A stretch of DNA of 32,000 nucleotides, taken from Candidatus Lokiarchaeum ossiferum. Lineage in GTDB: Archaea > Asgardarchaeota > Lokiarchaeia > Sigyniarchaeales > Promethearchaeaceae. This document shows positions 1 to 29,867 of this stretch, one piece after another (the first letter of the stretch is position 1; every line of letters begins with the position of its first letter). The translations under genes were made by a program, and so were the position numbers. Where the stretch lies: contig CP104013.1 in assembly GCA_025839675.1 (NCBI GenBank), positions 5,580,001 through 5,612,000 on the forward strand. The letters run 5' to 3'. The notes under the pieces are model-generated. The model was not told the origin of the DNA. It was given only the letters and a program-made list of their open reading frames with translations, and did not search any database.

Positions 1-81
1 CAAAGCCAATTAACCCATACACGAAACTTGACAGAAAAACAAAAATTAATATCCAATACTCATTCAAGATAAGGAAAAAAA

Positions 82-663
82 TTAAACATGGTTAAAAAAA
101 TCTTGTAATAATTCTGAGAAATTCGTTACGGGTAAAATTTGGGTAAATAATGATGGTTTATGGGCTAATATTAGATAGTTTGCATATATAGCGGGTTTGT
201 TTTCTTGAATTGCCATATTCGTAAAATCCTTTTCGATTATTAAATGATCGGGAAAATCTTGTTTGAATTGGTTCAATCGCTCATTAATATCTGGATATGA
301 TTTTATATCTTGTGAAAGACTACTTTTAGGGATGAGTTCATGGTTATTAACTAGTGTGATCCCATTTGGTCTTAGATATTGGAGATTTCGTAATAATTCT
401 AACGGTTCCAAAGCGACCATTAGATCTATCTCTTGAATTGGAGGGGAAGGAGATAAAAAAGGTATGGTTTTAGAGGGATCTAGATTGTAACGAACTAAGC
501 AAAAAACTGATCCTTCTCGTTGAGAGACTCCCCGTGATTCCATTGAGACTAATCCATGAATTTGAGATGATTTTAAGGCCATTTCTCGGAAAAATTTTCC
601 TAAAGTCATGACACCTTGACCTCCGACTCCGACAATCATAATATTGAAAGAAAATTTGTTCAT
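82..663 (-). CDS. iorB: Indolepyruvate:ferredoxin oxidoreductase beta subunit (gamma-type domain of 2-oxoacid:Fd oxidoreductases)
   Basis: 193-aa ORF. The N-terminal IMIVGVGGQGVMTLGK glycine motif and the SRGVSQREG segment are typical of the IorB/gamma family. Its start overlaps the iorA stop in an ATGA arrangement (660-663), which implies one operon. Confidence 0.8.
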   Translation of the reverse strand: MNKFSFNIMIVGVGGQGVMTLGKFFREMALKSSQIHGLVSMESRGVSQREGSVFCLVRYNLDPSKTIPFLSPSPPIQEIDLMVALEPLELLRNLQYLRPNGITLVNNHELIPKSSLSQDIKSYPDINERLNQFKQDFPDHLIIEKDFTNMAIQENKPAIYANYLILAHKPSLFTQILPVTNFSELLQDFFNHV

Positions 664-17466: not shown

Positions 17467-18357
17467 TTAAAAAATACTGTTGCCACAATGATCGCAGTAA
17501 ATGGAGGCTAGGTTTTTTATATTCTTCCCACAAGAGGGACATTTTTTTGAAGTTTTTGCAGTGTTTAGACCCGCTTTTGAAATTCTAACAGGATTAATTA
17601 TCCGAGTTTCTTGTGAATTCGAGATCGGGTCAAAGATTGGATTTGTTGTTGTTTTTGGGGTGTTATTAAAGATTGGATTTGTTGTTGGTTTTGGGGCGTG
17701 GTCAAAGATTGGATTTGTTGTTGGTTTTGGGGTGTGGTCAAAGATTGGATTTGTTGTTGGTTTTGGGGTGTGGTCAAAGATTGGATTTGTTGTTGGTTTT
17801 GGGGGGTTATTAAAGATTGGATTTGTTGTTGTTTTTGGGGTGTTATCAAAGATCGGATTCGTTGATGTTTTTGGTGCTGGTTTGTATGCTGTTTTCTTGC
17901 TTGATTTGACCTTGGGACTAATTTTCGGAGATACGGGTTTTGTTTTATTAGGTTTTGCAATGCTGTTTGTTTTAAAGGTAGGGTTTCCTATGGCTACTGA
18001 ATTAATTTGAGGTGGAATATTTGCACTTTGATTAGAGGTTTCAGGATATAATGCCTTAATTCGTTTCTGGGATATGATCATTGCTGGTAGAAAAACAATA
18101 TAAATTATTAATCTTGCCATGGCTGTACCCGCTGATGCGCCTCCGTAGACTATTCCTCCTTTCATTGATTTTTTAAAAGATCTAAAAGCAACCCAAGAAA
18201 AAAATAATAAAACAAGGAAAAACCCCACATACATTCCGAAATGACCAAATATCAATCCACTCATAAAAATATCAAACGAAACAAAAATTAATTCCAAGAT
18301 TAGCGTATTTATGAAAAAGTTGGAATAACTCTTTGAAATGGCTTCATCTTTCGTCAT
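17467..18357 (-). CDS. Membrane protein: N-terminal TM helices, P/T/N/K-rich disordered region with 7 tandem 12-aa repeats, C-terminal zinc ribbon
   Basis: 296-aa ORF. TM helices in aa ~15-100, the PKPTTNPIFDHT-type repeats, and C-terminal CPSCGKNIKNLASIYCDHCGNSIF (CxxC...CxxC). Confidence 0.65.
   Translation of the reverse strand: MTKDEAISKSYSNFFINTLILELIFVSFDIFMSGLIFGHFGMYVGFFLVLLFFSWVAFRSFKKSMKGGIVYGGASAGTAMARLIIYIVFLPAMIISQKRIKALYPETSNQSANIPPQINSVAIGNPTFKTNSIAKPNKTKPVSPKISPKVKSSKKTAYKPAPKTSTNPIFDNTPKTTTNPIFNNPPKPTTNPIFDHTPKPTTNPIFDHTPKPTTNPIFDHAPKPTTNPIFNNTPKTTTNPIFDPISNSQETRIINPVRISKAGLNTAKTSKKCPSCGKNIKNLASIYCDHCGNSIF
17623..17874 (-). repeat. Tandem coding repeat, 36-nt unit x7 (PKPTTNPIFDHT)
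   Basis: Units read PKTSTNPIFDNT, PKTTTNPIFNNP, PKPTTNPIFDHT, PKPTTNPIFDHT, PKPTTNPIFDHA, PKPTTNPIFNNT, PKTTTNPIFDPI. The central units are near-identical at the DNA level (gtcaaagattggatttgttgttggttttggggtgtg on the + strand). Confidence 0.9.
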
Positions 18358-18650: not shown

Positions 18651-19871
18651 ATGATATTACAAACAGCTGGAGATATTTTTGTTGGTGTTCTTGTTGGAGG
18701 CCTTATTTTAGGGGCCATTTTGTTAATTATTTATTTAAAGAATATGATCGTGGTCCCTTTTAACGAGATCCACGTAATCAGTAGAGGAAAGAAGATTAAC
18801 ACTCTTGACGGAAAAGGGCGTTATCTTTATCTTAAACCATTGATGGGGAGAACGATTATTCCTAAGCACGTGCTCGATATTGAACCAGGTCTTTTGGAAA
18901 TGCACGATTGTGATAACTTACCCTTTGGAATTGAAATCAGTGTTAAGGTACAAGTCACAGATCCACAGAAAGCGGCAGCTACTTTAACTCGAATTGATCA
19001 TACAACTGTTTCCAAAGTTGTAGAAGATACTGTCATGTCTGCAGCTCGCTCTATTGCAATGGAACGAACTATTTTAGATATAATGAAAAAACGGGAGGAT
19101 GTCGAACAATCCGTATATAGCATGGTTTCCGATGCTCTTGGAAAATTAGGATTATCGGCTATTATCTTTGACATTAAAAATATTCGCGATATCGATCAAA
19201 GCCAAGTAATATCCTCAATGGAACGGGTTAAAATTGCGGAATTACAAAAAAATGCTCAAGTTTCAGAAGCGATTCATAAAAAAGAAGCCACTGTTAAACG
19301 AGAACAAATGATGCAAGAAGAAGCTGCTGCAAGATTAACTCGGGAACAAGAGATTATTACACAACAAGTTAAAGTGGACCAAGAACAGTTGATCCTCGAA
19401 AAACAACAATCTTCGAAAAAAGCAGAAATTGAACGTGAAAAGCAACGCATTTATGCAGAAGCTGCTAAAGAAAAATTGATGATAGAAACACAAGCTGCTG
19501 CTGATGCTATCAAATTAAAGGCTGAATCTGAATCTCATGCAATCAAAATCCGTGCTGAAGCAGATGCGGACGCAATTCTCAAAAAGGGACAAGCTGAAGC
19601 GACAGTCTTAGAAATGAAAAATAAAGCCATGGGAGGTAATTTTGCTGCCCAAATTGAATTATCTAAAATAATGTCTGTTGCTCAAATTGATTCAGCCGGA
19701 AAAATTGCCGAAGCGTTAGGTAAAAATAATAAAATCATGTATCTACCTACAGGTGGAGATAATGGAATTCTTTCCAATTTTATGCCTAAAATGGATGCCA
19801 TAATGCAATCTGGTTTACCTGCAGAAATCATGGAAACTCTTGGGAAGAAAAAATCGACCAAAAAACAATAA
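18651..19871 (+). CDS. Flotillin-like SPFH/Band-7 protein (FloT/YqiK type)
   Basis: 406-aa ORF. N-terminal TM helix (IFVGVLVGGLILGAILLIIYL), an SPFH core, and a long E/A/K/Q coiled coil (AEAAKEKLMIETQAAADAIKLKAESESHAIKIRAEADADAILKKGQAEA). GAGG lies 9-12 nt upstream of the ATG. Confidence 0.85.
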   Translation: MILQTAGDIFVGVLVGGLILGAILLIIYLKNMIVVPFNEIHVISRGKKINTLDGKGRYLYLKPLMGRTIIPKHVLDIEPGLLEMHDCDNLPFGIEISVKVQVTDPQKAAATLTRIDHTTVSKVVEDTVMSAARSIAMERTILDIMKKREDVEQSVYSMVSDALGKLGLSAIIFDIKNIRDIDQSQVISSMERVKIAELQKNAQVSEAIHKKEATVKREQMMQEEAAARLTREQEIITQQVKVDQEQLILEKQQSSKKAEIEREKQRIYAEAAKEKLMIETQAAADAIKLKAESESHAIKIRAEADADAILKKGQAEATVLEMKNKAMGGNFAAQIELSKIMSVAQIDSAGKIAEALGKNNKIMYLPTGGDNGILSNFMPKMDAIMQSGLPAEIMETLGKKKSTKKQ

Positions 19872-19945
19872 TAAGATTTGTTTTTATTTTTTTGTTATCA
19901 TTACTCATAATATATTTTTTAATCAATCAATCATAGGTTAAACAA

Positions 19946-20599
19946 ATGGTAAAAGTTCCAATTGGAAAGGAAGTTGAAATTAATCTTTGGGATTCGAAGA
20001 AAAAGCACGGAATGGTCAAGTATTTTACTGACACAATGGATTTAGTCCGTGCCGAAAGCGAATTTTCTTTAAAAAAAGGTGATTCTGCCATTGTGGTTGA
20101 ATCCTATGATAGTTTTGTAGTTGTTGTTCCTGAAGATGAATATACTCAATTGCTACATGGTTCACATTTAGATGGGATTGATATTCAAGGCTTAAATGAA
20201 TTAATTTATAAATTATTAAAGGAGAGGATAAAAGATACTGGAGGAATTCTTTCTTTTGATGAGTTATGGTCAATTTTTAAGCGATCATCTATTCAAAGTG
20301 TTATTACGAAAAAGCATTTAAAAAAGGCTATAAAAATTCGACAAAGCTCATTTGATCGAATTAAAGATGATGGAGATACCATTGTCGCTCTAAAACCTCA
20401 AGAATGTTTGAATGATATCACTCAAATCGTGCGCCATTCTTCCAATACTTCATATGTTACAAAAGATTTTTTACAAAGCACTTTGCACTGGTCTGATTTG
20501 AGAATTGAACGGATATTGGATTATTTGACTAAAGAAGGGCGCTGTAGGGTTGAAGATTCATTTCGAACAGGCACCCGATACTATATGAAATTTTCATAA
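19946..20599 (+). CDS. Soluble fusion: NfeD-like OB-fold domain + ESCRT-II-type (EAP30, Vps22/36-like) tandem winged helix
   Basis: 217-aa ORF. Aa ~1-65: HGMVKYF...VRAESEFSLKKGDSAIVVESYDSFVVVVPE fits the NfeD C-terminal OB pattern. Aa ~85-217: TGGILSFDELWSIF...KKHLKKAIK...TIVALKP...STLHWSDLRIERILDYLTKEGRCRVED...RYYM is co-linear with SNF8/Vps22 (NGGLITLEEL...; SLKWETERARQVLEHLLKEGLAWLD), recalled from memory. No TM segment. Confidence 0.55.
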   Translation: MVKVPIGKEVEINLWDSKKKHGMVKYFTDTMDLVRAESEFSLKKGDSAIVVESYDSFVVVVPEDEYTQLLHGSHLDGIDIQGLNELIYKLLKERIKDTGGILSFDELWSIFKRSSIQSVITKKHLKKAIKIRQSSFDRIKDDGDTIVALKPQECLNDITQIVRHSSNTSYVTKDFLQSTLHWSDLRIERILDYLTKEGRCRVEDSFRTGTRYYMKFS

Positions 20600-23410: not shown

Positions 23411-24760
23411 TTACTTGCTCTCTTTTTGTAAAAAAGCAATAAAATATCCGATACTATCATTAAGTCCGGGATAAAATCGGATCATTTGTTGGCATTCCTC
23501 ATCAGAGAGATCCATGCGAGAAATTCCTGGTTGTCCTATTTTTCGATATTTTTTGGGGATTGATACCACTTTATATCCCAATTTGTGAACTGCATAGGCA
23601 ATTATGTCCTCGTTTTCTTCTTTTGGAATTGTACATGTATTATACATCAAAAATCCCCCCGGTTTTACTAGATTGTCTACAATTTTTAATAGACGACGTT
23701 GATTAACCGGATAATCTAAAAGATCTTTCATAGTTTTATCAAGAAATATTTTTGGACGTGTTCCCAAAGCACTACATGGTGGATCAAACATCAAAAAATC
23801 TGCACTTTTTTCGAGTTCAGGGCGTAATTTTAATAATTTTCGTAAGTTACATGCCAAAACCTCGATATTTTGAAGTCCCAACCTTGTGATGTCGTTTCTC
23901 AAATGTTCTAATCGATTTGTTGATCTATCAATAGAAATTATCTTTGGCCACTTAGGTTTGCCTTGACTGCGTGAGAGATAAAATCCCCATTCAGCTAAAG
24001 CAGAAGTCTTATGCCCAGGAGCAGAGCAAGTATCAATAATTAAACCAGTGCTTTCAGGAAATACTTTTAAGTATTTCTCCATAAAAATTGCGGATGCTAA
24101 ATTTGGAGGGAGATTTTGTTCAGTAATCCATCCTTTTTTATATAAATCGCCATCACGATAATCGGGAATAGAATATAGTGGATTATGGTTTTTCACAAAA
24201 ATTCCTTTCAAATATTTGGGAAAATCTCGTGAAGAGATCATTGCTTCTCCATTAGCAATATGAAAATACTTTTCGAGCTCATCTGGGGTAAAATCAGAAT
24301 TTTTCACAATCTCAGGATATTTTTTTGGAGCAAGCGTTATTGAAACAGCTTCTCCTTTCGGAAATTTTCCATTGAAACCTTTAATTCCAGGTACAAAGAG
24401 ATTTGCGCCAAGCATAATTGATTCTGCAGCAAATTTATCACAATATACAATTCTATCATGAAGCTTTCCAACTTCTTTCTTTGTAATAGGGATTTGCAGA
24501 ACATTGGGAAGGGATCCGAGTTGACTTAGGACAGTGGGGAATATATTTTGAGTAAAAGAAAGAGCATTTTCTGGACTTATTTTTGATAAATTAATTCTCA
24601 AGTTATAATATTGAGGAGGTGTATGAATTGCCTGAATAATTTTTAACATATCTTCCGGATCGGTTATTGTTGCACTTAATCTTTCAATTACTGCTTTACC
24701 TATGAAATTTTGTTGTGCGTATTGGAGTACTAAGGAACTTTGAGAATCATCATTAGCCAT
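23411..24760 (-). CDS. RNA cytosine-C5 methyltransferase, NOL1/NOP2/Sun (RsmB/Trm4) family with PUA domain
   Basis: 449-aa ORF. PUA-like segment GANLFVPGIKGFNGKFPKGEAVSI, SAM motif IIDTCSAPGHKTSALAE, and catalytic motifs IV FDPPCSALG and VI MYNTCTIPKEENE. Confidence 0.85.
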   Translation of the reverse strand: MANDDSQSSLVLQYAQQNFIGKAVIERLSATITDPEDMLKIIQAIHTPPQYYNLRINLSKISPENALSFTQNIFPTVLSQLGSLPNVLQIPITKKEVGKLHDRIVYCDKFAAESIMLGANLFVPGIKGFNGKFPKGEAVSITLAPKKYPEIVKNSDFTPDELEKYFHIANGEAMISSRDFPKYLKGIFVKNHNPLYSIPDYRDGDLYKKGWITEQNLPPNLASAIFMEKYLKVFPESTGLIIDTCSAPGHKTSALAEWGFYLSRSQGKPKWPKIISIDRSTNRLEHLRNDITRLGLQNIEVLACNLRKLLKLRPELEKSADFLMFDPPCSALGTRPKIFLDKTMKDLLDYPVNQRRLLKIVDNLVKPGGFLMYNTCTIPKEENEDIIAYAVHKLGYKVVSIPKKYRKIGQPGISRMDLSDEECQQMIRFYPGLNDSIGYFIAFLQKESK

Positions 24761-24876: not shown

Positions 24877-25275
24877 ATGAATTTAAATACTGTACTTGCA
24901 AAGGAAATAATGAGTTCTGCAATTTCAACAACAACGCCAATGGAAAAAGTGTCTAATGCAGAAATCTTGATGATTAAAAAGAATATTGGGGGTTTACCTG
25001 TTGTTTCTGCTGAGACAAATCAATTGATTGGAATATTGACCCAACGCGATGTCCAACTAAGCCGTTCTATTATAGGTACCAATGTATTCCATGTTGATGA
25101 TCTTTATTCTAAAAACCCTGTCAAAGCCCTATTAGATGACCCTTTACCCGATATAATTAAAAAAATGAATGATTATAACATTGAGCGAATTCCTGTTGTT
25201 GATGAGAATAATTTCGTCCAAGGCATTATTGTAACTCAAGATATCATCTCTCTTTTAGGAAAATATTTCGCATAG
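24877..25275 (+). CDS. CBS domain pair protein
   Basis: 132-aa ORF with two CBS repeats (IMSSAISTTTP...GGLPVV...LIGILTQRDV and ...NIERIPVVDENNFVQGIIVTQDII). Confidence 0.85.
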   Translation: MNLNTVLAKEIMSSAISTTTPMEKVSNAEILMIKKNIGGLPVVSAETNQLIGILTQRDVQLSRSIIGTNVFHVDDLYSKNPVKALLDDPLPDIIKKMNDYNIERIPVVDENNFVQGIIVTQDIISLLGKYFA

Positions 25276-25871: not shown

Positions 25872-28800
25872 TTGTTAAATTATATCGAAGATTTTGAAGA
25901 ACATTTAAAAAATCGTCAAAATAAAGCTATATCGGAATATAAGATCCTCTTTTTTATAATTTCAATTTATGATCTCCTTGGAGTTCCCCCAAAGACACTT
26001 AATAGTCGATTTATACGAAAATTGTCCCAATCTTGTAAAGGGACTGATCAGATTTATCGCCTACTCTGCCTACAATACATCGGTAATAGAGATTTGATTA
26101 ATGATGTTGAGTTATTCAAACTCCAAAAGTATCAAAAACCAAACGGCGGTTTTACCATTCAAAATTCTGCTTATGCTGATGTGAATGATACATTTTGGAT
26201 TGGATATACTTTAGAATCTTATAAATGGCTCCTTCCTTATAGGGCTGGACCATTATATTCGTTTATTGTGGCTGTTTTTAGACACGTAAATCTTTCTCAA
26301 AAAGAAAATTTTGATCAACAAATCCAATATTTGGCTCAAATGGTGGTTCTCCAGACAAATATTTTTAATAGTTTGATGAATGAAGCCGAAAAATTGATTT
26401 TTTCTAATCTTTCACCCAACGGATTGTTAGATTTGAAAATTCTATCCATTCAAGGAGGATTTTCAGGTTCCGAACAAGATATTATTCGTCATATTAACAA
26501 TAAATATCAAATCCAGTTGGATATTATGGATAATAAAATCCTTTTCCGACGATTTTTGAATAAAATTAATACATTTGAAGAAAAAATTGCTATCAAATTG
26601 AAGGATAAAATTCAAACTCACTCGCAATTAGACATAACTGAATTTCGAAAAGGATTTAATCGACGAATGGCAAAAAATTTGCGAATCAAGGATGAAGAAC
26701 TGATTAAATTGCTTCAGAGCATGATGCAAGAACACTTTTTTACTGGTAAGATAAATAAAAAGAGTCGGTTTCCATTTTCTCACAATTTTTATTTTATCCG
26801 GGAAAGTTATTTAGAATATTTAATTGTATGCAACAAACCCGTCTCTTGGGAAAATATCCGTCATGAAAAACGTCGATTAGACGAAATTTCTAAAGACATA
26901 TATAGCATGACTCGGGAAATGGAAATTTCTACCTCAAATATTATGAATGAGATTGAATCTTTGATCATTGTAGGAATTGACCCTGAATTCATTGAAGAAC
27001 GCCTAACTTTCAATATAAAGAAAACTTTGATGGATGCTTCTTTTTTCAATAAAACGATAGAATCTTTTGAATCTGAGTTTGAATTAATTAAACCTCAAGT
27101 TGCACTTGAAACCTTATTTAAAAGATGGAATTTTATATATTCATCTCTTCAAAAGAATTTTCAGAACGTAAGACGTATTTTGACAATTAAAATTGGAACT
27201 TTGCGTGAAGAAATTGATCAGCACCAGTTAACTGTGGATTTAGAAAAATTAATTTCAAACAAAATTGGTTTCTTGATGGAGCAATTTGATGGATTCGATA
27301 GAACTTTTCGAATTAAGTTGGAGAGTGAATATTCCCGAGATAATGTGAATAGACTTGAAATTTTTCTTCAAGAAATTGAAACAAGTACAGAAGATGCAGA
27401 TCACCAGGTGCGGGCTTTATCATTGCGTATATCAAGTAAAGAAAAAAATATTGCTTCTTTCCGTAAAAAAGTGATTTCCCGATGGATCTCTCAACTTGAT
27501 GAATTTAAAAACGTAATTTCTTACTATAACTTGGGAATAAGCTTGTGGAACAAGAAAATTGGTGAGATTGATATTAATTTTAACCAATTTACTTCAACTA
27601 TTGAAAAATTCAAAGATCAAATTAATCAATTTATCCAAGATCATGATTATTCTCAAGCTTTGAAGAATACAGAAACGGGATTTGTAGAAATATCTAAGAA
27701 TATTGGCAAATTTTCTAAAAATTTGAAGAAAGATATTGGAAAATATTATAAAAAAAATCGGAAACTCGCCCCCTTGATAAGAACTATCCAAAATGAATGG
27801 CTAGAAATGCAAAACATTCTGGAAGAAGACATTCAAACAACTCGAGATCAATATTCACAGTCCATACAAATGGATCTTAAAACTCATTTGCGAGAAACTT
27901 TGAATTTAAAAGTGACAAAGGTAATTACCGAAATGAGACAAGAAATCATAAAGGTCGAGAAGCAGATTAATTCTGAAATTCTTAAAGAAGGAGACTTTCC
28001 GAAATCTCAATATATTACTAAGATCCAAGACTTAAATGAAATTGTTATTGATAAATCTCAAGATGTATCGCAAGCGGTCAAGTCTGCTGTAAGTAAATAT
28101 AAAAAATTCGATTTTTCCCCCATTATTTCCAATTTTGAAAAATTCAAAATTGATTTTCTCGAAGAAATTAAGAATTTGGAGAGAAAATTTCAAGGTGATG
28201 AATTAATTTATTGCATTTTACAACATGCAAAAAATCAGAAGTTAAATTTTATCCCAATGTCGGAGATAAGTCAATTAGTTAAAACCGATGAGAAAGAACT
28301 TCTCGACCAGTTGTCATTATTAGTTACTGATGGAAGATTAAATGCGAGAATTTTCGGAGATCCTATAACTATTGAAGTTCATAATGAATCTTGGCGGAAT
28401 TATAAAAGATTAAGGGCCCACAATTTAATTCTTCTCCGTGAATTAAATTCTTCCACAAATAAAATTGAAATCTTTTTTGAAAAATCCATCCAAAGTAATG
28501 AATTTATGAGTTCTATCGTCCAAATTCGTCAACTTTGTCTGAATTTTAAACAATCTATATTCCAAACTTTAGAATCTTATGAAATTTTCATCCAAAAGAA
28601 TAATATAGATATGAAAAACACGCTGTTGGAAAAAACATATCGTGACTTTTACTTACAACTAGAGAAATTAACCCAAAGAGTTGAATCTTTTGCTAAAAAT
28701 TGTGACCTTGCAGAAAAATATCAAGATTTTCTAAATCAGAATACAATTCTACTTGAAGAGAACATCAATTCTGAAATTAGGCGTTTGCATCGTTATGTCG

Positions 28801-29867
28801 ACTCTAGGCCAAAAACTTCTTCTTCGAAACAATCTATTGAATGGTTGAACTCTCAAAAAAATGCTTTAAACAATGGAATTACTCTAATCGACAATAAAAT
28901 TGAAGAATTTGCACAACAAAATGTGATGGGTGATATCCATTTAGTGGTTCGCCATCTTGATAATTCATATCAACAACAAAAACACAATTTATTAAACGAA
29001 TATCAGAATGCTCTTGAGGACCTTCTTGAAAGAATTGCTTTACAAGAAATAAATTCAATGCAAAAGGATATGGATAAAATACTTCTCGGCCTCCAAAATT
29101 CCTTGAATGATTTTATATATAACTATGATCTTGAAATAACAAATAAAATTCGCAGCAAAGAGTTTTTGCTCGCTTCCAAAAAACTTAAGATAAGAACTCA
29201 ATTAATCGAAGAACGGGTTAAAAAAATTGAGAAAAAAATGGCAATTTCTAATAAGTCATTATCAAATAGGTCCAAAATTTTTTCAATCAAATATTCTAAT
29301 TATTATAAAGAACAATGGGAAGAATTCTTAAGTGATTTTATCAAAACTCAATTGCAAGCTAAGTTTATAGCACTTCAAACCGAAATGATTCTCCATTTCA
29401 CTTTTTTTTCTATGAAATCTCTCAAAGGTAATTATGTTCCTCTTCGAGTTTTTACAGAGGATTTGAAAATAAAGCACACGGTTGTAAAACATGCCTTAAT
29501 GACCTTGATTTCAGAAGATATTTTACCTGGAAAAGTAGATCTTTCTTATGATATATATTTTGAGGGATCTGATGAATTGGATGCTGAAACTATTGCATCA
29601 TTGGATATAATAAAAAAGACAAATGTAAAATTTTACATGGGAATTTCGCGTGTGTCAAATGTAATGAAATTATTGTATCCCTTTCTAGCGTCAATTCCTC
29701 CAATAATTACAATAATTTATCTAATTGGTGATTCTACTTCAAGAGTTCTTTGGGTTCTTGCCCCAATGCTCATTCTAATTTTTATAATCTCCGTTGTTTG
29801 GATTAAAAAGGGAAAAGACAAAGTCAAAAAAGACCAACTTTTAAGAAAGTCACGGCAACTAAATTAA
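25872..29867 (+). CDS. Giant (>=1331 aa) tail-anchored protein: prenyltransferase-like alpha/alpha repeats, ~900 aa coiled coil with embedded winged-helix-like modules, two C-terminal TM helices
   Basis: Uninterrupted 3996-nt ORF. N-terminus: YRLLCLQYIG...QKYQKPNGGFTIQNSAYADVNDTFWIGYTLESYKWL (Q-x-x-x-GGF repeat signature). Long K/E/Q/N/I-rich heptad-like region. WH-like modules, e.g. IPMSEISQLVKTDEKELLDQLSLLVTDGRLNARIFGDPITIEV (aa ~794-836) and VPLRVFTEDLKIKHTVVKHALMTLISEDILPGKVDLSYDIYFEG (aa ~1189-1232). TM helices LLYPFLASIPPIITIIYLIG and VLWVLAPMLILIFIISVVWI. In-frame ATGs also exist at 25830 and 25851. Confidence 0.7.
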   Translation: MLNYIEDFEEHLKNRQNKAISEYKILFFIISIYDLLGVPPKTLNSRFIRKLSQSCKGTDQIYRLLCLQYIGNRDLINDVELFKLQKYQKPNGGFTIQNSAYADVNDTFWIGYTLESYKWLLPYRAGPLYSFIVAVFRHVNLSQKENFDQQIQYLAQMVVLQTNIFNSLMNEAEKLIFSNLSPNGLLDLKILSIQGGFSGSEQDIIRHINNKYQIQLDIMDNKILFRRFLNKINTFEEKIAIKLKDKIQTHSQLDITEFRKGFNRRMAKNLRIKDEELIKLLQSMMQEHFFTGKINKKSRFPFSHNFYFIRESYLEYLIVCNKPVSWENIRHEKRRLDEISKDIYSMTREMEISTSNIMNEIESLIIVGIDPEFIEERLTFNIKKTLMDASFFNKTIESFESEFELIKPQVALETLFKRWNFIYSSLQKNFQNVRRILTIKIGTLREEIDQHQLTVDLEKLISNKIGFLMEQFDGFDRTFRIKLESEYSRDNVNRLEIFLQEIETSTEDADHQVRALSLRISSKEKNIASFRKKVISRWISQLDEFKNVISYYNLGISLWNKKIGEIDINFNQFTSTIEKFKDQINQFIQDHDYSQALKNTETGFVEISKNIGKFSKNLKKDIGKYYKKNRKLAPLIRTIQNEWLEMQNILEEDIQTTRDQYSQSIQMDLKTHLRETLNLKVTKVITEMRQEIIKVEKQINSEILKEGDFPKSQYITKIQDLNEIVIDKSQDVSQAVKSAVSKYKKFDFSPIISNFEKFKIDFLEEIKNLERKFQGDELIYCILQHAKNQKLNFIPMSEISQLVKTDEKELLDQLSLLVTDGRLNARIFGDPITIEVHNESWRNYKRLRAHNLILLRELNSSTNKIEIFFEKSIQSNEFMSSIVQIRQLCLNFKQSIFQTLESYEIFIQKNNIDMKNTLLEKTYRDFYLQLEKLTQRVESFAKNCDLAEKYQDFLNQNTILLEENINSEIRRLHRYVDSRPKTSSSKQSIEWLNSQKNALNNGITLIDNKIEEFAQQNVMGDIHLVVRHLDNSYQQQKHNLLNEYQNALEDLLERIALQEINSMQKDMDKILLGLQNSLNDFIYNYDLEITNKIRSKEFLLASKKLKIRTQLIEERVKKIEKKMAISNKSLSNRSKIFSIKYSNYYKEQWEEFLSDFIKTQLQAKFIALQTEMILHFTFFSMKSLKGNYVPLRVFTEDLKIKHTVVKHALMTLISEDILPGKVDLSYDIYFEGSDELDAETIASLDIIKKTNVKFYMGISRVSNVMKLLYPFLASIPPIITIIYLIGDSTSRVLWVLAPMLILIFIISVVWIKKGKDKVKKDQLLRKSRQLN

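Follow-up and report, generated by a model that had tools for sequence, protein, structure and literature searches.

A flotillin gene paired with a gene for a soluble OB-EAP30 protein: a candidate flotillin/ESCRT-II-like module in Lokiarchaeum and its relatives

The DNA analyzed here (called the window below) is a 32,000 nucleotide (nt) stretch of the genome of Candidatus Lokiarchaeum ossiferum (contig CP104013.1, positions 5,580,001 to 5,612,000 of the forward strand), with a G+C content of ~29-36%. The original prediction, which was made from the nucleotide sequence by itself, pointed out that a gene for a 406 amino acid (aa) flotillin-type SPFH protein is followed 74 nt downstream on the same strand by a 217-aa open reading frame (ORF) whose product appeared to join an NfeD-like OB domain to an ESCRT-II-type tandem winged helix, and it proposed that the two genes form a hybrid flotillin/ESCRT-II-like module. 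The positions and spacing of the two genes are exact, and their products are 100% identical to L. ossiferum NEF87_004764 and NEF87_004765, respectively. Table 1 gives the coordinates of the pair and its parts. The analysis described below supports the hybrid-module interpretation of the pair, and from it we infer that the two proteins may dock and that ESCRT components may be recruited.

Table 1. Coordinates in the window of the flotillin/OB-EAP30 gene pair and of the predicted parts of its products.
Feature	Nucleotides	Residues	Strand	Basis or remark
Flotillin-type SPFH gene NEF87_004764	18651-19871		+	406 aa
Flotillin transmembrane anchor	18675-18731	9-27	+	hydropathy
SPFH/Band_7 core	18750-19271	34-207	+	Pfam
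Predicted coiled coil, E/A/K/Q-rich	19266-19685	~206-345	+	composition only
Intergenic spacer	19872-19945		+	74 nt, read directly from sequence
OB-EAP30 gene NEF87_004765	19946-20599		+	217 aa; 74 nt 3' of flotillin gene
N-terminal OB-fold domain	19946-20140	1-65	+	AlphaFold2, Foldseek
Lone helix before winged helices	20183-20224	80-93	+	AlphaFold2
Winged helix 1	20228-20392	~95-149	+	AlphaFold2; alignment to SNF8, Vps22
Winged helix 2	20408-20587	~155-214	+	AlphaFold2; Foldseek

The flotillin architecture proposed in the original prediction held in each of its parts: There is a single strong N-terminal transmembrane (TM) segment (19-residue hydropathy of 3.0 from aa 9) with basic residues after it, an SPFH core that matches Pfam Band_7/SPFH PF01145 with an E-value of 1.5e-13 (51.6 bits, cutoff 23.6), and a long region whose composition predicts a coiled coil. 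This topology and the positive-inside rule suggest that most of the protein is cytoplasmic. The only solved relatives found in the PDB at E<0.01 are human flotillin-1 (2.3e-12) and flotillin-2 (1.6e-4); stomatin, prohibitin and HflK/C gave no PDB match at that level. The bacterial FloT equivalog NF058507 of NCBIfam scored 58.8 bits, which does not reach its cutoff of 700, and Pfam found no match to the Flot C-terminal domain PF15975 in the 406-aa protein. Judged by these comparisons, "flotillin-type SPFH protein" is a fair label for NEF87_004764. As a separate observation, two metagenomic proteins that are 46-54% identical to the window flotillin (P0116 and P0117) have SPFH and coiled-coil regions fused to a Ras-family GTPase (the C-terminal Ras-family small GTPase of P0116 spans aa 264-424, Ras E-value of 1.4e-38), and separate Arf/Ras-type GTPase genes lie a few kb from the pair in four loci (L001, L010, L011 and L019). 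This hints at a connection between flotillin and small GTPases in Asgard archaea, with the caveat that GTPase genes are plentiful in such genomes.

The 217-aa partner protein has no TM segment (maximum 19-residue hydropathy of 0.77) and no protease domain in Pfam, as the original prediction had noted. Its aa ~85-217 had been described there as co-linear with the two winged helices of SNF8/Vps22, and this proved correct. Pfam EAP30 (PF04157) matches aa 86-203 with 32.8 bits (gathering threshold 26.8, E-value of 7.4e-8), and the match spans positions 95-218 of the 219 in the profile, which is to say both winged helices. Profile positions 1-94, the N-terminal helical region, are unmatched, and an OB barrel is present at aa 1-65 instead (below). 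An AlphaFold2 model of the protein made with 29 homologues has a predicted local distance difference test score (pLDDT) of 90.9 and a predicted template modeling score (pTM) of 0.83; the secondary structure elements (H, helix; E, strand) are H95-98, E101-103, H104-112, H122-129, E136-141 and E144-149 in the first winged helix and H155-165, H173-180, H184-196, E200-205 and E209-214 in the second. The lone helix that precedes them in the model is the sole remnant of the Vps22/Vps36 N-terminal helical region. Foldseek ranks 1-5 for the full model are all ESCRT-II chains (2zme_B, 2zme_A, 3cuq_A, 3cuq_B and 1u5t_A, E-values of 9e-7 to 4e-5); the top hit is VPS36, and VPS36, SNF8 and Vps22 are all found at E~1e-6, the first two with practically equal E-values. 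By sequence, a PDB search with the 217-aa protein alone yields human SNF8 (1.4e-4) and yeast Vps22 (0.012), and a profile of the winged-helix half built from 20 family members finds SNF8 at 6.5e-12 (48.7 bits), yeast Vps22 at 3e-8 and VPS36 at ~1e-3 (22.2 bits). Residues ~95-214 are a genuine EAP30/ESCRT-II tandem winged helix and not a generic winged helix-turn-helix domain, and the profile scores place this domain nearer to Vps22 than to Vps36. Pfam found no GLUE/PH domain in the 217-aa protein. When the winged-helix half was used in a word-indexed search, all matches were members of the OB-EAP30 family. UFL1/DDRGK1 winged-helix repeats are also among the Foldseek matches of the partner protein, and in one lineage a ~797-aa protein with E3_UFM1_ligase and PCI matches (and a faint DDRGK match) is encoded two genes downstream of the pair (L003:7056-9449 and L004:5339-7735).

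The original prediction read aa ~1-65 as an NfeD-type OB domain; the OB fold stood, and so did NfeD as its closest structural relative, but the sequence match to NfeD did not (below). AlphaFold2 places five beta strands within aa 9-62 in the full model and also in a domain-only model (pLDDT 85.5), and on these models we regard the predicted OB fold as established. Foldseek rank 1 for the domain-only model is 3wwv, the NfeD C-terminal OB domain of the P. horikoshii "stomatin operon partner protein" (E-value of 4.4e-3, template modeling score 0.62/0.69, root mean square deviation (rmsd) 2.5 Å, 25% identity), and an NfeD domain is likewise the top PDB match for the N-terminal domain of the full model. 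All five solved NfeD OB domains (3wwv, 2k5h, 8z5g YbbJ, 3cp0 and 2exd) were recovered at rmsd values of 2.2-3.2 Å and with up to 27% identity, and generic OB folds (S17, cold-shock, eIF1A, Mpa and Ten1) are mostly at 3.3-6.6 Å; for the modeled domain, then, NfeD is the best structural match. When the family was compared by HHalign with seven NfeD OB domains (five from the PDB and two from Helarchaeota, below), 46 columns covering the whole barrel were aligned in the expected register (P of 2.2e-4, probability 45%), and none of 300 column shuffles reached the same score; HHalign comparison with single NfeD sequences was uninformative. In Pfam and NCBIfam the N-terminal domain gave just noise (Hfq and DUF4926, both sub-threshold). 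Searched with HMMER, a profile of the OB domain retrieved 23 clusters at E≤1e-10, all of them ~215-aa proteins of the same architecture or fragments of such proteins, and its weak matches in long proteins (Ig-like, FG-GAP, etc.) were rejected as repeat artefacts. Homology of the OB domain with NfeD is thus well motivated but not demonstrated, and sequence does not support NfeD membership. Within the partner family the OB domain is the most conserved region, above the winged-helix half. The N-terminus MVK(V/I)P (nt 19946-19969, aa 1-8) is invariant in 29 family members and has no regular secondary structure in the AlphaFold2 model; it may be a contact element for flotillin.

Is the pairing of the two genes conserved? 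The partner family contains 41 clusters at 90% identity, nearly all of them 214-222 aa long. Thirteen distinct genomes (window counted) have upstream sequence available for a neighbor check, and in 12 of these the flotillin gene is directly upstream on the same strand, so the survey that the original prediction had called for came out in its favor. The genomes with the pair are the window, P. syntrophicum MK-D1, two Harpocratesius genomes and several "Promethearchaeota" metagenome-assembled genomes; the pair is also present on contigs labelled Hermod-, Hod- and Sigynarchaeota and in the most divergent member examined (L019). Because it is found in 12 of the 13 genomes, is co-directional and has otherwise entirely different flanking genes in all of the loci that bear it, the flotillin/OB-EAP30 adjacency is far beyond chance. 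The intergenic gaps elsewhere are 3, 4, 6, 18, 37, 40, 57, 59, 79, 151 or 157 nt, and gaps of 3-6 nt suggest that the two genes are likely to be co-transcribed in some genomes. In the thirteenth genome the two genes share a contig (ERR12304477_159, 86 kb; L008:4001-4669 and L018:4001-5251) and a strand, with the flotillin gene ~9.6 kb upstream, and it looks as if the pair has been separated there by insertion or rearrangement. At this split locus a TFIIS-type zinc-ribbon gene comes right after flotillin and an ArsR-type helix-turn-helix gene right before OB-EAP30. A scan of GTDB species, limited by the peptide pattern that it used, gave five loci. The source labels of contigs that carry the pair (L009, L010, L012 and that of protein P0133) are, as recorded, Hermod-, Hod-, Sigyn- and even Bathyarchaeota; if these labels are right, the module extends outside Lokiarchaeia to lineages reported to be poor in ESCRT.

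The flotillin family is broader than the partner family. The next-nearest flotillins are those of Helarchaeota (~40% identity), beyond which the scores drop to those of bacterial flotillins. In two independent Helarchaeota genomes a ~195-aa gene precedes the flotillin gene, and its product has three TM segments, an OB domain and a C-terminal zinc ribbon. This OB domain aligns with nearly the full PF01957 (NfeD) profile (E-values of 0.0025 and 0.0035, ~18 bits with a threshold of 29.1), and there is no EAP30 gene 3' of flotillin in the two genomes. Within one flotillin lineage, then, the partner is membrane-anchored and of NfeD type in one clade, and in the other it is the soluble OB-EAP30 protein. 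Because the orthologous Helarchaeota flotillin has a classical NfeD-type partner, the OB domain of the 217-aa protein is probably its flotillin-binding element, and the sister lineage supplies the strongest contextual argument for this. In the window itself, the product of the gene at 17467-18357 (minus strand), divergent from flotillin, is 296 aa long and combines three TM segments and a CxxC...CxxC zinc ribbon at its C-terminus with some nine Pro/Thr-rich repeats of the form "PKxTTNPIFD" (in the DNA, a tandem repeat with a period of 36 and 6.8 copies at 17630-17874). TM plus zinc-ribbon proteins that have no OB domain are also encoded immediately upstream of flotillin in two other Loki-clade loci (the zinc-ribbon observations are at L007:2056-2514, L009:2048-2515, L011:3376-3954 and L020:2889-3476). 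These Loki-clade proteins might be NfeD leftovers after loss of the OB domain, but the BLASTP likeness is in the ribbon only, at E~1e-3.

SPFH proteins form large membrane-attached cages, and SPFH genes are classically paired with genes for membrane-anchored NfeD proteins, sometimes with a ClpP-like protease in addition. Such pairs include E. coli QmcA-YbbJ (8z5g), P. horikoshii PH1511-PH1510 (3wwv) and B. subtilis FloT-YuaF/NfeD2. In QmcA-YbbJ the YbbJ OB domain reportedly covers the SPFH domain while the TM helices bridge neighboring subunits. PDB entry 8z5g contains 26 YbbJ chains, and by analogy it may serve as a precedent for a 1:1 OB-SPFH assembly. The window is like these operons in that an SPFH gene is adjacent to and co-directional with a gene for a five-stranded OB barrel. 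It is unlike them in that the partner has neither TM segments nor a ClpP-like protease domain, its gene is downstream and not upstream of the SPFH gene, and it carries a C-terminal ESCRT-II tandem winged helix, for which we found no report in an NfeD protein.

The partner protein shares with Vps22/SNF8 and Vps36 (PDB 3cuq, 2zme and 1u5t) the tandem winged-helix core, with significant similarity in sequence and in structure, and as in Vps36 this core is preceded by an N-terminal accessory domain. It differs from them in that most of the N-terminal helices, the GLUE/PH domain, the zinc fingers and the steadiness box are absent, the OB domain being there instead, and its gene is outside ESCRT clusters and tied to a flotillin gene. 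The canonical Asgard Vps22 (asCOG cog.002769; Hatano et al. 2022, Makarova et al. 2024) likewise has the EAP30 tandem winged helix, but unlike the window partner it has an N-terminal helical or steadiness-box region and homodimerises, and its gene is beside vps23/vps28 or vps25/ESCRT-III/vps4. The main text of the L. ossiferum genome paper does not list canonical ESCRT-II genes. According to Hatano et al. 2022, Asgard archaea possess just one Vps22/36-like gene and lack Vps36, which those authors concluded to have arisen during eukaryogenesis; the second EAP30 paralogue was therefore overlooked there. Links between SPFH proteins and ESCRT are known from other settings: Makarova et al. 2024 describe an SPFH gene in the "Meth_adaptin" ESCRT loci of (euryarchaeal) Methanomicrobia, and they note the links of B. 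subtilis YdjI(SamI) with PspA and of eukaryotic flotillin-1 with ESCRT-0/I. As in the window, an SPFH scaffold is associated with ESCRT-family machinery in these cases, but they use Vps4/ESCRT-III/adaptin-like loci, PspA and Hrs/Tsg101, and none is an OB-ESCRT-II fusion. The main text and the searched supplement text of Makarova et al. 2024 contain no account of an Asgard flotillin/OB-EAP30 pair.

The original prediction supposed that both the fusion and its pairing with flotillin were undescribed, and only the second of these stands. A November 2025 preprint (Naripogu et al., 10.1101/2025.11.01.685982) has already described an OB fold plus EAP30 protein of MK-D1 under the name VPS36, which was chosen from a neighbor-joining tree and structure superposition. 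In HeLa cells the sites at which this protein co-localises with the human proteins VPS25, VPS22 and VPS36 are centrosomes, midbodies and a subset of endosomes, and retrovirus release is increased. The preprint takes the OB fold to have evolved independently for the recognition of cargo and reports that MK-D1 also has separate canonical VPS22 and VPS25 genes. Its Table S2 contains the same Foldseek hits that we obtained (3CUQ-B, 2ZME-A, 3WWV and TEN1), with 3WWV at rank 1, and its main text makes no mention of stomatin, flotillin, SPFH, NfeD or gene neighborhood. The preprint prints no accession, but because MK-D1 has only one locus with this OB domain its "VPS36" is almost certainly DSAG12_02218, the orthologue of the window protein (62% identity). 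No published account of the flotillin/OB-EAP30 pairing was found in the literature searched, and as far as that literature shows the pairing and the NfeD reading are new.

On the identities of the domains, their topology (soluble versus anchored), the conservation of the adjacency and the finding of a classical NfeD partner in the sister lineage (above), we are inclined, with modest confidence, to view the pair as a two-gene module peculiar to Loki-type Asgard archaea in which a soluble NfeD-type adaptor docks ESCRT-II-like winged helices onto cytoplasmic flotillin cages. Of the three outcomes that the original prediction had set against itself (only generic winged helix-turn-helix matches, no OB fold and an unconserved pair) none was observed. 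Flotillin would be anchored by its one N-terminal TM segment, and by analogy with solved SPFH proteins its SPFH and coiled-coil regions would assemble a cage on the cytoplasmic face of the membrane. The OB domain, as an unanchored counterpart of the partner-binding domain of NfeD, would bind the flotillin subunits, perhaps with the 1:1 stoichiometry of the precedent above, and the cage would then present many copies of the Vps22-like winged-helix tandem at the membrane. In eukaryotic ESCRT-II the second winged helix of Vps22 and that of Vps36 each hold one Vps25, which nucleates ESCRT-III. The displayed winged helices could engage Vps25 and/or canonical Vps22 and could reach ESCRT-III by way of Vps25, and a flotillin-delimited membrane patch would thereby be coupled to ESCRT-III. 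The OB domain would take the place of the Vps36 GLUE domain and would read a protein scaffold.

A more specific form of this module, which we put forward tentatively, is that flotillin cages bring ESCRT-II to the membrane through a "Vps36-like" arm made of an NfeD-derived OB domain and a Vps22 paralogue. The OB domain would have been captured from the membrane-anchored partner of flotillin, the TM plus zinc-ribbon proteins possibly being what was left behind, and the targeting domain would read a protein scaffold and not phosphatidylinositol 3-phosphate (PI3P) or ubiquitin. If true, archaea would have in this module a means of placing ESCRT-III nucleation around a membrane microdomain, and the module would be a possible evolutionary antecedent of the eukaryotic flotillin-ESCRT connection in endosomal sorting. 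Asgard archaea have no GLUE/PI3P-binding Vps36, which bears on the question of how their ESCRT-II gets to membranes. The Loki clade has a second EAP30 paralogue with an N-terminal domain like those that dock on SPFH proteins and a gene locked to flotillin, and the chain from flotillin cage to OB-EAP30 to Vps25 to ESCRT-III is a testable membrane-targeting hypothesis that also gives the OB fold left unexplained in the 2025 preprint a new interpretation. [quoted passage not shown] Should the link to ESCRT fail, the module remains an SPFH-NfeD pair of an unusual, soluble form.

Several points weigh against an adaptor that connects flotillin to ESCRT through an NfeD-type domain. With regard to the OB domain, PF01957 has no match at E≤10 in the window protein or in 16 family members, a further difference from the classical SPFH-NfeD operons; the HMMER profile of the OB domain found no NfeD protein among 1.84 billion representative proteins; and the E-values of the domain-only Foldseek search are marginal, with no match at E≤0.001. 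The HHalign score for NfeD is 23.7, and the beta-barrel control families gave 21.7 (Hfq), 18.7 (cold-shock) and 17.7 (IF1) over short local stretches, so by this sequence measure NfeD appears to lead only slightly. With regard to ESCRT, no ESCRT gene lies beside the pair in any of the 13 loci, and none was found among the scanned ORFs of at least 90 aa in the window, as the original prediction had said. Makarova et al. 2024 describe Hermod- and Hodarchaeota as being without the diverse ESCRT families of Lokiarchaeia, and should the Hermod- and Hod- contig labels be correct, the module can occur where there is little ESCRT machinery. The HeLa cell data on the MK-D1 protein come from heterologous over-expression. 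Finally, the spacer between the window genes has a T-rich run immediately past the flotillin stop codon and an AT-rich TATA-like stretch (ATAATATATTTTTT) ~30 nt ahead of the partner ATG; because of these two elements the window partner gene may have its own promoter, and as judged from them strict co-transcription across the 74-nt spacer is not assured. A sigma-70 promoter scan showed no enrichment, and the sigma-70 model is inapplicable to archaea.

The absence of ESCRT neighbors and the contigs labelled as ESCRT-poor lineages would be expected if the partner were solely a flotillin accessory, i.e., a soluble replacement for NfeD whose winged helices, ESCRT-II-derived by evolution, oligomerise, cap or regulate the cage and have no ESCRT-III/Vps4 function. 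The loss of the N-terminal helical half of the EAP30 profile and the better conservation of the OB domain than of the winged-helix half also agree with this explanation. We nonetheless consider it rather unlikely, since the winged-helix half is still strongly like eukaryotic SNF8 (6.5e-12), which suggests that an ESCRT-II-type interface has been retained, and since the MK-D1 orthologue co-localises with human VPS25, VPS22 and VPS36. That same co-localisation, found at ESCRT sites in human cells, together with the name given in the preprint, the full-model Foldseek top hit to VPS36 and the weakness of the NfeD sequence evidence, can be taken to mean that the protein is the Loki-clade "Vps36" arm of canonical ESCRT-II, its OB domain binding a cargo or ligand other than flotillin and its adjacency to flotillin reflecting co-regulation or flotillin as a cargo. 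This seems improbable to us: The profile of the winged-helix half favors Vps22/SNF8 over VPS36 by the bit scores above, the OB domain finds its best structural matches specifically among the domains of SPFH partners, the gene is locked to flotillin in nearly all of the genomes that could be checked, and a true NfeD is found at flotillin in the sister lineage.

In Stn1 an OB domain is likewise followed by two winged helices. This common order, and the presence lower in the Foldseek lists of Ten1/Stn1, cold-shock, S17 and eIF1A OB folds and of DNA-binding winged helices, would be the grounds for regarding the partner as a Stn1/RPA32-type nucleic-acid binder or as a winged-helix transcription regulator of the flotillin locus, and such a role is very improbable. 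Ten1 superimposes on the OB domain with an rmsd of 6.6 Å versus 2.2-2.5 Å for NfeD, the winged-helix tandem is EAP30 by sequence at a score over the curated threshold, and the product of the conserved partner gene is a membrane scaffold and not a protein of DNA metabolism. We rejected a Stn1/RPA32-like identity on the much worse structural fit and the EAP30 sequence match.

The remaining genes of the window are housekeeping or miscellaneous ones and include those for pyruvate:ferredoxin oxidoreductase subunits, a lactate permease, methyltransferases, an AlkZ-like glycosylase, an EamA transporter, RsmB/PUA and CBS proteins and a two-component system. Scans found no tRNA or Rfam features in the window, and defense-system models gave zero matches to it. 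A 1331-aa ORF (25872-29867, plus strand) has a weak PCI-domain match as its sole match. This ORF and the RsmB/PUA (23411-24760) and CBS (24877-25275) genes are syntenic with locus L008, in which a gene for a 1475-aa protein comes after the same RsmB/PUA and CBS genes.

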